Below, piece after piece: positions 2,516 through 28,970 of a stretch of 64,000 bases of DNA. Under the pieces are notes generated by a model. It made no database searches and was not told where the DNA came from. It was given only the letters and a program-made list of their open reading frames with translations. Source of the stretch: Ruditapes philippinarum. Its lineage: Eukaryota. The stretch covers positions 1-64,000 of the forward strand of contig NW_026857808.1 in assembly GCF_026571515.1 (NCBI RefSeq). The letters run 5' to 3'. The translations under genes and the position numbers were made by a program. Position 1 is the first letter of the stretch; each line of letters opens with the position of its first letter.

Positions 2516-3712
2516 CAAGAGCCATGTCAAAATGGCCATCCCCCGCCGAATGTGTTTGCTCATTTGAAGAATGTATATGTAGTAGAGCAGAATAATTCCA
2601 TTTTAAGAGGTCTTTTGGTAATGAAAACTGATGGCTATAGTGATTACAGATTTTAAACCTATGTGAATACTGATGGCTGAAAATAACAAAGGGCAATAAC
2701 TGAAAAATAATGCAGGGTAGGTTATCATCCTTGTGTGCTGCATCCCTCCTCAGTAAAATCTATCCACCTATTGAAGTTTCAAGTTGATACCTCAAATACT
2801 TTTGAGAAAAAAATTGAATTGAAAAATTAAGTTTGAAAAATAACAAAGGGCAATAACTCAAAAATTATAAAAGGTACAGTTATCATTCTTGTGCAGTGCA
2901 CACCTCCTGAGTGAGATCTATGCACCTGTGAAGTTTCATTTTTGATATCTCAAAGGCTTTTTTGAGTTTTATGCTCTGGACAAAAATTAATTTTGAAAAA
3001 TAACAAAGGGCAATAACTCAAAAATAATGCAGGGCAGAGTTATCATTCTTTAGCACTGCACTCCTCCTCAATGAGATCCATCCACCTATGAAGTTTCAAG
3101 ATGATACCTCAAATACTTTTTCAGATAAGCTCTGGACAAAAATAGCATGAAAAAAAAAACAAAGGGCAATAACTCAAAAAATTGTATAGGGAAGAGTTTA
3201 TCATTCTTGCGCACAACATTTCTCCTCAATAAGATCTATCCTTCTATGACATTTCATGTTGATATCTCAAACACTTTTTGAGTTATGCTCCACTCAGGTG
3301 AAAAATTAGGTATGAAAAATAACAAAGGGCAATAACTCAAAAATTATGAAAGGAAGAGTTATCATTCTTGTGCACTGCACACCTCCTGAGTGAGATCTAT
3401 GCACCTATGAAGTTTCATGTTAATATCTCATAGGCTTTTGGAGTTATGCTCTGGACAAAAATCAATTTTGAAAAATAACAAAGGGCAATAACTCAAAAAT
3501 CATGCAAGGTGGAGTTATCATTCTTGTGCACTGCACTCCTCCTCAATGAGGTCTATCCACCTATGAAGTTTCAAGTTGATAACTCAAATACTTTTAGAGA
3601 TATGCTCCGGACAAAAATTTCGGACGGAAGGACGGACGGACGGAAGGACGGACGGACGGTCGGACGGAGACTATTACTATATCCTCCGCCGAAAATTATC
3701 GGCGGGGGATAA
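2516..3712. mobile_element. HINE/pearl-like non-autonomous Helentron-type element with 6 x ~158-bp internal tandem repeats
   Basis: 5' CAAGAG start; subterminal IR ATCCCCCGCCGA (2538-2549) / TCGGCGGGGGAT (3699-3710). Monomer AACAAAGGGCAATAACT at ~2684, 2842, 3002, 3158, 3321 and 3477. (GGAC)n microsatellite ~3622-3668 and a 3' hairpin. The empty site is in the paralogous spacer at 18099/18100. Confidence 0.88.
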
Positions 3713-23725: not shown

Positions 23726-25937
23726 GAACTATCGCTGAATGCGATTCATACCCCGACCAATGTCCTTGACAGAAGAAGACTTTGAAAGGTGGTTAAGGGA
23801 ATAACTTAAGTGGCACAAATACATATACATAAAAAGAAAATATCTCTGGTGGAAAAAAAACCAAATTGTACAGGTAATAGTTTTACTATATATTGTCAAA
23901 TCATGTTCAAAACAGTTACAAATAACCTATCATTTTCCCAATGTAGTAAAACAAACAAAAGTAGTAGTGAAGTTAAGAAAATAGCATAATTATGTCAAAA
24001 TGTAATTAAGAGTGGAAAAACTTTGCATACTCAGCTTACTTGTGACCCTTCATATATTATATAGTTTCGAGTGAATATCTGTTCTAGTTTCAGAAACATT
24101 TAAGTATTAATGGTTATATCAGAACATTTTCTAAGCCTAAAAGGGGCATAACTTGTGTAATAATTCAATGGAAATGTAGAATTTTCGTCATCTGAGCTTG
24201 CTTGTAACCATTCATATAAATTTTAAGTTTCAAGTAAATATTTGTTCTGGTTTAATAAATTATTGTTCATATTTGTCATCATTATTTTCTTGAAAAATAT
24301 GAGCTTTATTATTGAACATGCTATCGTGCTTAAAGTTCTGCATAATGGGGTGCTTGGGAGCTTATTATAAGGAAGGGGTATATTTCAGAATCAATACAAA
24401 TTTATTTACCAAAATGTATGCAACTTTAAATTAAAGATATTTCTTTTAGTGTAGACAAAAGTAATAAAGCATAGAATATTATCAATAAGATTTAGATTGT
24501 TCCATCATAATTTAATAACAAAACAAATAGTATTTTTGGCAATCAAGACAAAGGTTTTTTACAAATTATGAACACCTTTACATTTTGATGCCAAGATTAA
24601 ATTCATCTTATTTTAAATCTGAAACAATAAGACAGAGCTATAGAATTCATATCTATAGGGCTTTTCAACTTAATCTTTAAGCTAAAACAGTGGATGAAGG
24701 TAAATCAATATGTTAATGTATGGCACAAGTCTAAATTGAAATTTAACATTTTTGTGAAATAGGATAAGGAGTAATGGTAAGTGAAATTAATTAAAATCTT
24801 TTTTAACAGAAATATTTATGAAATGTTAAAATCTATAATAATAAATCAGCATTTTTCTAATTATTTATTCTTCACTTTTGACCTATCATTAAAGGAGCTC
24901 CAATCTGGCCTAAAGCCTAAAATATAAAATTTTAAATTTTTACATACATCAAGTGAAGCACTTGAAACTGAAACATTTGCAAAGGATAATAGCGAATATG
25001 CTGATAATTAAGCTAAAAAATAATTGTGTCTGATTATTAGCATGATTGTAATGCATAAAATAAATATTAATTTTAGGAAAAGAGGGACTCAGATGTGAAA
25101 CTATGCACACAAGTTATTGGTCGGGAACCTACATCAAAACTGCTGAAAAAAAATATTCTGGCCTGAGTTTTGTAAAAAAAACATCGCTGGAGTCCCTTTA
25201 ATATCTATCAAAATTAATACTCTATCAAAATTTCAGGTAAAAAATTAATTAATTACTGAAATATTGGCCATAAAATGTCAATATCACAGTAAATTACAAT
25301 AAACAACAAGAAGCCCTGTATATAGTTAAATGGCACTTAAAAAAATTGTAATACATAGATTCTACGAATGAACTACATAATTATTTGTAGCAGACAGAAA
25401 ACCTTAAATACTAACCCCCAAATAAATACAAATTATTATACATGAGCTCAATTTTCTAACCTTAAAAAAAAACCCTGCTATATAAATTGCATTTTTTTTT
25501 TGTATTTGCAATCAGCATAAAGTTGATATGACAGTATCAATATATATATATATAAATATCCTAGAAATATATAAATAATGAATATCACACAAAAATCGGC
25601 ATGTGCTTTTTTTAAGTATATCCCCCCTCCCTCCCGGACTCATGAATAAATTTTTGAAGATTGTAATAATTAATTACTTTAAGATGACAAATCCTAATTA
25701 GGCAAAATTATTAAATTATTAGATTTAATACAGTTTATTATCCTATAAAACTTTTTTCTTCTTTCTAAAAATCAATTAAATTTAAGTTAAGGTTATGAAT
25801 ATCACAATTTTCAATACATCTATTCATTTTTTGATAAAGGTATATGTATACAAGGCCAATACAATAAAGAATATATTGAATGATCATATTTCAAATTCTC
25901 AATAACAAAAATCTCCAAGGGCGCCATATAGGTGTAT

Positions 25938-26936
25938 GGACATAATCCCCTTCAGACAAAATCCCCTTCCCATACCCGGACAAAATCCCCTTCATGGGTG
26001 GACATAATCCCCTTCATGTTTTTGCAAGGCCGGACAAAATCCCCTAACCTACCAGGACAAAACCCCCTTCGGCCTTGTTTCATAGTTTTCTGATGTATTA
26101 TTATGGTCCATAAAATTGATGAATAATGTATTTTTATGCTCAATAAAAATTGATGAATTATAATGAACTTTTGTTTTTTTTATTTATAATTATGTATCAA
26201 GTTAACCTTTATAATTATATAAGCTTGATAAGACATATTTTTATTATTTGTTCCGATCAATTATCAACCAAATTATCATTAAAAACGATTTAACAGGTTT
26301 ATCAGTGTTCATTATAATTGTGGTAAATTATCAACTGCATAACAAATATATAGAGGATATTGAATGAGTGTAAGTTCAATACTGAATTTATTGCACGAGT
26401 TGAATAAAATTATATTATGCGAGCCTCTGGCGAGCATAATATTATTTTATTCAACGAGTGCAATAAATTCAGTAATGAAGTTACACGAATTTAATATTCT
26501 ATTTATCACATACCCAAAATAAAGACCGTTTAAGGTAAAATAAGAGTCGTTTTTCATTGACGCGCCTATAGTATAACGCTAACATTTAGCGCGTCTTTAC
26601 ACAATGTTTGAATAACGCTAATGACGTCACGTCAAAATATATGCACGGCCGTGCAATACCATATTTACGGAGTCGCAAAATCGGCACGGGTGTGTGATAA
26701 ATTTGATTAAGCAATTTCTTTAACTGCTTTAAATTGATTAGTATGAAAAACATTTTAATTAGTTTAACAGTGTTCATTTTAATTGATTAAAATGATGAGG
26801 GGGATTTTGTTGCAATTTTATTGAGGGGATTTTGTCCACTTCAAAATTTCACACATGAAGGGAATTATGTCCACCCATGGAGGGGATTATGTCCAGATAA
26901 ACAAAAATACATGAAGGGGATTTTTGTCTGACATTC
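25938..26936. mobile_element. Foldback/MULE-like MITE with an 8-bp TSD and repeat-built TIRs
   Basis: TSD AGGTGTAT (25930-25937, 26937-26944); empty site catatAGGTGTATctta at ~19644-19660. G..C termini. Six GACA(A/T)AATCCCC-type repeats on the left and five inverted copies on the right. Confidence 0.87.
26350..26702. mobile_element. Small nested element with a ~72-bp hairpin and an internal complement of its end junction (Crypton/DIRS-like architecture, unassigned)
   Basis: Arms 26354-26425 and 26429-26500 pair around the loop TCT. TTTATCACATACCC (26502-26515) is the inverted complement of the right end GGGTGTGTGATAAA (26688-26701). Confidence 0.7.
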
Positions 26937-27189
26937 AGGTGTATCTAAATAAAAGAAACAAAATTGAAGAAAAAATACAAACACAAAACTGAGTTCTGTT
27001 ATCACTTGAAAATATTTAAATAGAAATGAAGGTAGGTAGAAAACTTAGTCAAATTCAATTTTCTATTTGTATATAAACGATATCAATAACAGTAGCAGTA
27101 CAATATATATAGAGTAAAAAAAAACCTTTTTATTTTTAATTTCAGATTCATTAACTAGGATAAGTTATTAAATTAAAACTGTAACAAGT

Positions 27190-28970
27190 ATGGGAGCAAC
27201 CATACAACCTACAGTTAGACAAGAAACTGAACAGAGTAATGAAAGGAGACAGAAAGAATCTCAGGATTCTCTACATGAAGATAAAGTGGACAAGCCTCTT
27301 GTTGTAGTAGCCATAGATTTTGGAACAGTTCATTCCGGGTTTGCATATTCCTTTAAGGGAAATGAAGACAAAATAAAATCAGCAGAACATGGAGGAATGA
27401 TGCAGGAAGATAGAGTACCTACAGTATTGTTATTAAAACCAGACAAAACATTCCATTCATTTGGATACAAAGCACAGACTGAATTTTACAAGCTTTCTCA
27501 ATGTGACAGATCCAAATTTTACTACTTTGAAAACTTTAAAATGAAAATATATCATGAAAGTAAAATTGAAAGAAAAATGGTAGTTAAAGATATTTCTGGT
27601 AAACCACTTGAAGCTATGACAGTGTTTTCAATAGCAATAAAACATCTAAAAGATGAAGCATCAAAGATAGTTTGTGAATCAATACTTGAACTGAAAAAAA
27701 CTGACATTCAATGGATGATAACAATTCCAGCAATATCATCTGACTCAGCACGTCAGTTCATGAGAGAAGCTTCAACAAATGCAGGAATTCCAGAGACACA
27801 TCTTCGACTTGTTCTTGAGCCTGAAGCAGCAGCTTTATACAGTACACCACGAATAATGACAGAAGAAATACCGTGTGGATTTATGTACATACTTGCTGAT
27901 TTAGGTGGAGGGACAACAGACATATGTGCTCATAAAATAATAGATGGTAGGAAAATACAAGAAATATACCGAACAACAGGAGAAACCTCTGGTGGCAGTG
28001 ATGTTGATGATTGTTTTATTAACATGATGAAAACTTTAATAGGAAAAAAGGTTTGGAGTGAATTCTCAACTACCTTCCCATCAGCATGTGTAAGCCTTGT
28101 TAATGAGTTTAGACTGAAGAAGAAAGAGTTTAAATCAGAAACAAATGCTATACAACTGAAAATGGAAAATGCTCTGGTGCATTTCATAAGAGGGAAAAAA
28201 GGAACTTGAATGATATAGTAAATAAGTCGAAATATGCCAGAAAACTCGAGTATCATTCAATTGAAGCTAGACTTTTACTTAACAGAGAGATGCTGGAAGA
28301 ATTATTTAAGCCATCAGTTGATAAAATCATTAGCAAGTTGGTTGAAATACTAAATAAATGTGATGAAAATGAAATCAAAACAATCATTTTAGTTGGAGGA
28401 TACAGTGAATCTCCCTATGTAAGGGAGAGAATTCAATCACAGTTCAGAAATATGAGAGTTATCCTTGTAGATGATGCTAGACTGGCTGTGTTAAATGGGG
28501 CAGTGATGATGGGCTGGAAACCTAAAAATATCATACAACGTAAGTCCAGGTACTCTTATGGATTTGCAAATAAAAGACAATTCAGAGTGGGAATAGATCC
28601 AATTCAACTTATGATTATTTGTGATGGGGTCTTATGTTGTGACATGATATATTGGAAGATGATTGAAAAAGGTCAGATAGTGGAGTATGGACAGACATTT
28701 AAATATGAAGGGTATGATATAACCACTACAGTAGAAAAATGTATTGAGAGATATGTATTTCTATTTAGATCTACCCGTGAAGATCCTCATTACTGTATAG
28801 AGGAGTGCTGTAGCGAAGTAGGAACAATAAAAATTCTACCACCATCAGGTGGATGGCCAGATAGGTGGAAATTTCATCTACACCTTATTGTTGGTGAAAC
28901 TGAGTTCACTGTAAAGTATTTGAATCTTAATACAGGACAGGAATATGAAGCACAAATGGATTTTCTGTAA
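27190..28970 (+). pseudogene. HSPA12: HSPA12-like copy 5 with a single -1 frameshift in an A tract at ~28195-28202 (pseudogene or assembly error)
   Basis: ORFs 27190-28209 and 28206-28970 join into a full protein if one base is added to GGGAAAAAAGGAAC (copy 3: GGGAAAAAAAAGAAC). Confidence 0.92.

Follow-up and report, generated by a model that had tools for sequence, protein, structure and literature searches.

So far, the way in which Cryptons move has been taken over, as an assumption, from what is known of bacterial elements. In the accessible sections of the literature, CryptonA encompasses the Cryptons with DUF3504 (PMC13465315), and a tyrosine recombinase (YR) site is described as 11- to 13-bp repeats around 6 to 8 bp (PMC3212892). 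The same sections report that no terminal repeats were found in animal Cryptons (Kojima & Jurka 2011, PMC3212892) and that in the Glomhoppers, described in 2026, terminal repeats are absent or poorly conserved (PMC13465315). Eulor5/6 have been linked to Cryptons in an account whose accessible part does not mention hairpins (PMC5753468). At integron attC sites, as the available text has it, one folded strand is used, the strand is chosen by unpaired features, and resolution is replicative (PMC3458562, PMC2727003). Within a literature scope that left out Repbase Reports, Dfam, and subscription papers, we found no account of a Crypton end design like the one described here. Some Eulor entries have reportedly been noted as self-complementary.

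When analyzing the window, a 64,000-nucleotide stretch of the Ruditapes philippinarum genome, we found a 351-bp element at positions 26350 to 26700 (+ strand, defined as the hairpin-first strand) which is almost certainly a non-autonomous member of the CryptonA family, a known kind of element. Its limits are set by empty sites and by the ends common to all 30 of the top copies, which were fetched for comparison, and assembled contigs from four public runs have loose ends at 26350 and 26701-26702. The element interrupts an unrelated repeat at 25925 to 26937 (ends approximate), a foldback element with short inverted subterminal repeat arrays (9 matches of the subterminal repeat versus 0.39 expected) for which a first look gave 303 candidates in the genome. 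Among 14 paralogues of this host repeat, 4 (L283, L284, L285, and L287) consist of exactly the left flank joined to the right flank, 3 stop short of the site, and 7 diverge there. The four exact empty sites confirm that the insertion lacks a TSD, as a preliminary description of the locus had proposed. They also correct its span of 26350 to 26702, of which the start stands and the last two bases, 26701-26702 (AT), are part of the target. Nested insertions, too, have empty sites, and these again show no TSD. A conventional DDE MITE was rejected, as we found neither TIRs at both ends nor a TSD. About 490 bp from the element, the window holds the start of an Hsp70-family open reading frame (ORF) on the + strand (27190 to 27900 and beyond; Pfam HSP70, E value of 9e-06), which is presumably HSPA12-like.

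The element is multicopy. In the 1.4-Gb genome, all 40 matches scored in a DNA search, out of 929 candidates, are full length with 96 to 100% identity, and a 19-mer from the far end has 1,529 exact matches, compared with 0 for the control. End-to-start junctions of the circle type, which the preliminary description had anticipated, do occur as head-to-tail copies (L010 and L017). The junction pattern has 95 exact matches in the genome; however, not every match is such a joint, since among 12 that we inspected, 8 are end-to-start joints of the element or related families and 4 are altered internal complements. Nested and head-to-tail clusters are common among the elements of the hairpin-bearing group, and in another family of the group, one and the same site within the hairpin has taken repeated insertions (L005, L006, L007, L009, and L104).

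The hairpin of about 72 bp with a 3-nt loop noted earlier was recovered as a 78-nt inverted repeat (26348-26425 and 26429-26506, 83% complementary), the longest within 2 kb. The + strand fold has a computed energy of -79 kcal/mol (z = -10.8), matched by 0 of 100 shuffles, and the - strand fold has one of -72.4 kcal/mol. By computation, the two strands differ little, by 6 kcal/mol for the element and 2.5 kcal/mol for the hairpin of its partner. From the inverted repeat, the fold, and the stem comparison, the 5' arm begins at the element end (26350 to 26425) and the 3' arm covers 26429 to 26502, and the inverted repeat and fold place the loop at 26426 to 26428, all on the + strand. The three GA/GA tandems, also on the + strand, are where they had been placed: at 26366-26367, opposite 26487-26488 (TGAG/CGAA), unbroken in 42 of the 46 full-length copies taken without selection; at 26397-26398, opposite 26456-26457 (CGAG/CGAG), in 37 of the 46; and at 26421-26422, adjoining the loop and opposite 26432-26433 (CGAG/CGAG), in 36. 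All three are kept in the partner. Three weak Rfam matches, all below the gathering score, are expected of any long hairpin, and a miRNA reading was rejected.

A stretch at 26493 to 26515 (+ strand), composed of the hairpin-arm end and 26503-26515, forms an internal complement of the end-to-start junction; its reverse complement mimics that junction, which upholds the earlier claim. Positions 26503-26515 are complementary to the 13-nt far end of the element (26688 to 26700, + strand; 12 of 13 pairs, the odd pair being G.T on the + strand), as seen in the sequence, the fold, and the family comparison. Judged from pairwise stems, covariation between the internal complement and the far end is seen in all families that we examined. 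At the other end, the internal complement falls 2 nt short of the true end in 8 of 8 YR-linked families, and in the window element, positions 26350 to 26356 (+ strand) would form the spacer of a predicted folded recombination site, with 2 nt more than the opposing strand (26498-26502).

We searched the genome for a partner through its YR (98 matches), Helitron Rep (94 matches), and DUF3504 (149 matches) hits and then through 60 longer stretches. A long element with the same ends was found outside the window and encodes a DUF3504 tyrosine recombinase, in line with what the preliminary description had expected. This element (L143, G000:C1372) has 2,167 bp and a single ORF, which runs along the - strand relative to the window element. 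Its first 64 bases are 95% identical to the window element (61 of 64, including one flanking base; 26638 to 26700, - strand) and its last 170 bases are 84% identical (26350 to 26519, - strand), with changes that keep the stem paired. It also has a small copy head-to-tail against it, and its ends make it the likely partner of the window element. DUF3504 assigns it to the CryptonA type (PMC13465315, in the part available). A DIRS partner was rejected, since the full DIRS elements of the genome have the same topology and unrelated ends. DIRS1-like elements of about 5 kb (L094 to L097 and L108) have 3' ends that fold as a 240- to 330-nt palindrome with an internal complement, a topology as in the Crypton ends with near-perfect arms. 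No such hairpin was found within 1.5 kb of 30 Helitron Rep loci, a flank too short to exclude a Helitron partner. At the 53 DUF3504 loci that we examined in the genome, a hairpin of at least 80 nt lies within 2.5 kb in 41, although some of these hairpins are not part of the element at the locus, and is absent in 12.

The partner protein has 475 amino acids with matches to Pfam DUF3504 (E value of 1.8e-28) and phage integrase, and its one ORF encodes no RT, DDE, or HUH domain. The catalytic residues R, H-x-x-R, H, and Y are invariant in all five aligned YRs, the partner's among them, and its named homologues are mostly molluscan and cnidarian. The protein model (mean pLDDT of 79) gave QRICH1 and Cre as the best Foldseek matches. 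By VIA it is closest to Cre (Z of 17.1, root mean square deviation [rmsd] of 5.3, 286 aligned residues); IntI, with a Z of 13.0, falls below Cre and XerA and shows no special likeness. Residues 2 to 57 (P0001) form a small N-terminal domain with a predicted Tudor/PWWP/SH3-like fold (Z of 8.1, rmsd of 1.4, and 53 aligned residues against a Tudor domain), which, if the model holds, could be a reader of chromatin or single-stranded DNA. A second full-length partner copy is 96% identical and others are 84% and 93% identical. Both full-length copies in the assembly carry a stop codon. The stop of L143 lies early in the ORF, after the catalytic domain; it is not family-wide, because contigs of two other runs have a different letter inside it.

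We profiled the target with 62 left and 87 right flanks after removal of duplicates. The consensus is AATAW^N6-WTATT, palindromic arms around a 6-bp spacer. Left frequencies are 0.98 for A at -2, 0.77 for T at -3, 0.74 for A at -4, and 0.60 for A at -5; right frequencies are 0.90 for A at +1, 0.69 for T at +8 (P = 6e-11), and 0.54 for A at +9, with weaker T at +10 and +11. At the window locus, the left half of the target is 26345 to 26349 (AATAT) and the right half, with the spacer and the second arm, is 26701 to 26711 (both + strand), as given by the empty sites and the profile. On the hairpin-first strand, the element is inserted at the 5' edge of the spacer; in YR geometry, the cut of a strand falls at the 5' edge of its spacer. 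A need for 2 to 3 nt of homology 3' of the cut was rejected as weak, with T at +2 in only 44 of 87 flanks. As to direct repeats of 4 to 6 bp at the termini, a trait of the fungal/oomycete Crypton type, the target resembles the junction at -4 to -2 and at +1 and differs at -1 in 38 of 62 flanks, and there is no fixed repeat.

The target spacer is not homologous to that of the element beyond +1/+2, so that after two strand exchanges about half of the copies would show a swapped spacer. We examined 60 unselected copies, taken in contig order from the far-end matches (60 of the first 68 listed). The left end is kept in 46 of them (42 exactly, 4 with one substitution), and 14 are truncated at 17 to 277 nt. 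No reciprocal-strand product was seen among the 60, neither target bases at the start nor element spacer past the far end. Similarly, 1,529 far ends finish in GATAA and 31 in another base, while the target base at -1 is A in only 24 of 62 flanks. In these genomic scars, the exchange product of the GA-bearing strand alone survives.

We investigated the end design in other families of the genome, using 24 hairpins of YR-bearing or gene-less families picked by hand (one survey found 228 palindromes) and oriented by the adjacent far-end complement or, where its match was weak, by the family end motif. They hold 38 GA tandems and no TC tandem, and 56 G.T against 17 A.C pairs. GA predominates over TC in both orientations of the hairpin-first strand with respect to the ORF, antisense (15 versus 0) and sense (8 versus 0). 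Four DIRS terminal hairpins have neither GA nor TC tandems. The hairpin of the partner differs from that of the window element at 27 of 168 positions, and the only irregularities of its stem are three GA tandems, one G.T pair, and a 2-nt bulge. In a second clade of CryptonA, the ORF runs the other way with respect to the hairpin end (L106, L107, L158, L164, L165, L173, L152, L146, L169, and L151); most members have GA tandems on the hairpin-first strand, and the 2-nt offset is present in the three families checked. In L016 (about 3188 to 3348), L300, and L302, one arm is identical to the other near the base and a GA tandem or the 2-nt offset is lost, likely through arm-to-arm conversion.

We further included 83 metagenome or metagenome-assembled genome (MAG) loci, a set from which L279, a weak match, had been omitted; they gave 66 hairpins. 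Keeping those downstream, within 1.1 kb, and at least 80 nt long left 32 hairpins in 31 loci, many of the other loci being short contigs. The 32 hairpins have 65 GA versus 9 TC tandems; 22 have GA only, 3 lean to TC (L200, L206, and L217), and 7 do neither. A clear far-end complement is present in 11, and the G.T excess over A.C was not seen in this set (45 versus 51). When the 56 hairpins are pooled, 151 isolated 2-by-2 loops on the hairpin-first strand include 91 GA/GA, 9 TC/TC, and 1 AG/GA. The GA tandems stand in a Py-GA-Pu context in 97 of 103 cases, a context in which, according to the available text, stable sheared pairs form in DNA hairpins (PMC10085684, PMC8163305). Among 21 clusters unlinked by BLAST, 15 lean to GA, 1 to TC, and 5 to neither; the clusters probably share deep ancestry and hence are not independent origins. 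L200, L217, and L252 have an inner hairpin inverted with respect to sister copies, with TC in place of GA tandems, and are either natural flip/flop isomers or assembly artifacts. A search of viral contigs found no relative, and a genome contig collection gave four loci, three in MAGs and one weak. The three (L276 to L278), two of which have a hairpin, are CryptonA-like genes in bacterial MAG contigs and probably represent misbinned animal host DNA.

Across these families, the end design is kept while the sequence turns over, and it is strand asymmetric. The preliminary description had looked to conservation of the GA tandems among copies. They are indeed kept in copies and across unrelated families; within the young family, however, GA positions show no extra conservation, varying at 0.035 compared with 0.020 in the rest of the stem. 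This is what would be expected of mostly dead copies, yet it lends no support.

We consider it probable, at roughly 0.68, that the element moves as a folded single strand through one strand exchange and replicative resolution. This reading builds on the observed ends, the lack of a TSD, the partner, the GA-tandem hairpin, the 2-nt-short complement, the palindromic target, and the one-sided scars, and it would add a folded single-strand intermediate on which the recombinase acts. The hairpin-first strand would fold when single stranded, for example, during replication, and sheared G.A pairs would give a duplex-like stem to this strand and not to its complement. With the internal complement as a splint, the two ends would be brought together as a pseudo-double-stranded recombination site whose spacer would be uneven, and there the partner recombinase would exchange one strand and release a single-stranded circle. 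A second one-strand exchange would join the circle to an AATAW^N6-WTATT target, and host replication would resolve the junction, giving copy-type amplification. Several results weigh against folded-strand movement: the strand energy gap is only 2.5 to 6 kcal/mol, 12 of the 53 DUF3504 loci lack a nearby hairpin, 3 of the 32 metagenome hairpins lean to TC and 7 to neither without replicating the G.T bias, GA positions vary no less than the stem in the young family, the hairpin clusters probably have a deep ancestry in common, both full-length partner copies have a stop codon, and the recombinase bears no particular likeness to IntI.

The published model of Crypton movement (PMC3212892, PMC13465315, as far as their accessible text goes) has a double-stranded circle excised and then integrated by two strand exchanges. 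Applied here, it would give the hairpin the role of an accessory origin or of an array that binds protein, and it would have spacer mismatches repaired with strand bias. It is in keeping with the end-to-start junctions, the lack of a TSD, and the ordinary YR geometry of the target, but it predicts reciprocal products in about half of the copies, where we saw 0 of 60, and it leaves unexplained why unrelated stems have strand-specific GA tandems and why 8 of 8 families have a 2-nt offset; we regard it as unlikely. One-sided inheritance and a strand-specific stem would also fit a copy-out of one strand that starts from double-stranded ends, as bacterial SE elements do it; the hairpin would then be no recombination site and would only prime the second strand of the circle or act as its single-strand origin. 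Such copy-out has no need of the internal complement, yet the complement shows covariation with the far end and lies directly against the cut site, and we find this explanation doubtful.

A route through RNA, in which a transcript is reverse-transcribed in trans by a DIRS RT and the folded cDNA is integrated by a YR, or in which the GA tandems are selected in RNA, appears very improbable. It draws on the DIRS elements of the genome, which share the topology of an internal complement plus a terminal palindrome, and on DIRS-1, which, in the available part of the report, makes single-stranded cDNA, needs its ICR, and has an RT that acts in trans (PMC7192593). However, the partner lacks an RT, the orientation of the GA strand with respect to the ORF differs between the clades, antisense in one and sense in the other, and the near-perfect DIRS arms have no GA tandem in four cases. 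Moreover, the arms and the internal complement of the element keep fixed differences and therefore are not copied from each other. A Helentron/HINE-type rolling-circle element moved by a Rep-helicase is largely refuted, since the same ends flank an element with only a YR, and we give it next to no weight. The - strand order of repeat, repeat, and palindrome does resemble that of HINEs as outlined in the accessible text (PMC4067079), copies are found in tandem, and there are 94 Helitron_like_N matches in the genome; yet the palindromes known from that text are 5 to 10 bp long and set back, with a TT target (PMC4067079), whereas here a stem of about 75 bp is terminal and the site is palindromic and of the YR type.

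In a broader view, which we hold to be somewhat more probable than not, animal CryptonA elements in general move as a folded single strand. DIRS and CryptonA would in that case share an ancestral end design; this design would be fed by cDNA in DIRS and by a peeled chromosomal strand in CryptonA. Since the end design, the enzyme that goes with it, the target consensus, and the predicted cut position are in hand, short oligonucleotides would suffice to test the mechanism. Folded-strand movement, if true, would extend integron-style single-strand recombination to animals, link Crypton and DIRS ends, provide a structural signature with which to find and classify abundant unclassified hairpin repeats, and offer a compact recombinase for inserting folded single-stranded DNA with no duplication.

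The comparisons that follow rest, on the published side, on the accessible parts of the cited papers. Helentron HINE/DINE-1 elements also have an asymmetric inverted repeat and a palindrome at one end and no TSD, but they have an HUH-helicase partner, a short palindrome, and a TT target (PMC4067079). The strand-biased circularizing SE elements of Vibrio are likewise YR elements copying out one strand; unlike the family described here, they are bacterial and have four genes, and no folded end is described for them (PMC9345347). DIRS1-like elements share YR integration, the lack of a TSD, an internal complement beside a terminal inverted repeat, and a single-stranded DNA intermediate, the last of which would apply to the window element only under folded-strand movement (PMC7192593). 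The window family, in contrast, has no gag or RT and its arms carry conserved mismatches. The DIRS analogy drawn in the preliminary description thus holds for the topology and not for the internal complement, which in DIRS-1 is 88 bp long and exact (PMC7192593) and here has 23 nt; because it is imperfect and 2 nt short, it cannot template end copying. Membership in the DIRS1-like group was rejected: one mismatch and the 2-nt deficit are fixed across copies, both long inverted arms are at one end, and the partner has no RT/RNase H.

With integron attC/IntI, the predicted likeness is a YR acting on one folded strand that is chosen by unpaired features, with one exchange resolved by replication, and in both the structure is conserved while the sequence turns over (PMC3458562, PMC2727003). 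By analogy with attC, the recombinase may prefer the folded strand over the duplex. The window family differs in being eukaryotic, in encoding its own YR, with a fold closer to Cre, in marking the strand with sheared GA tandems instead of the extrahelical bases of attC, and in a site that would be put together on an internal splint out of the two element ends. With CryptonA and its derivatives, it shares a single DUF3504 YR gene, the lack of a TSD, non-autonomous copies that outnumber autonomous ones by far, and ends common to both (PMC3212892, PMC13465315, PMC5753468). For published Cryptons, the same sources describe a circular intermediate, no terminal repeats in animals, and 4- to 6-bp direct repeats in others; the window element, unlike these, combines a fixed hairpin with GA tandems, an internal complement, a 2-nt offset, and one-sided inheritance.
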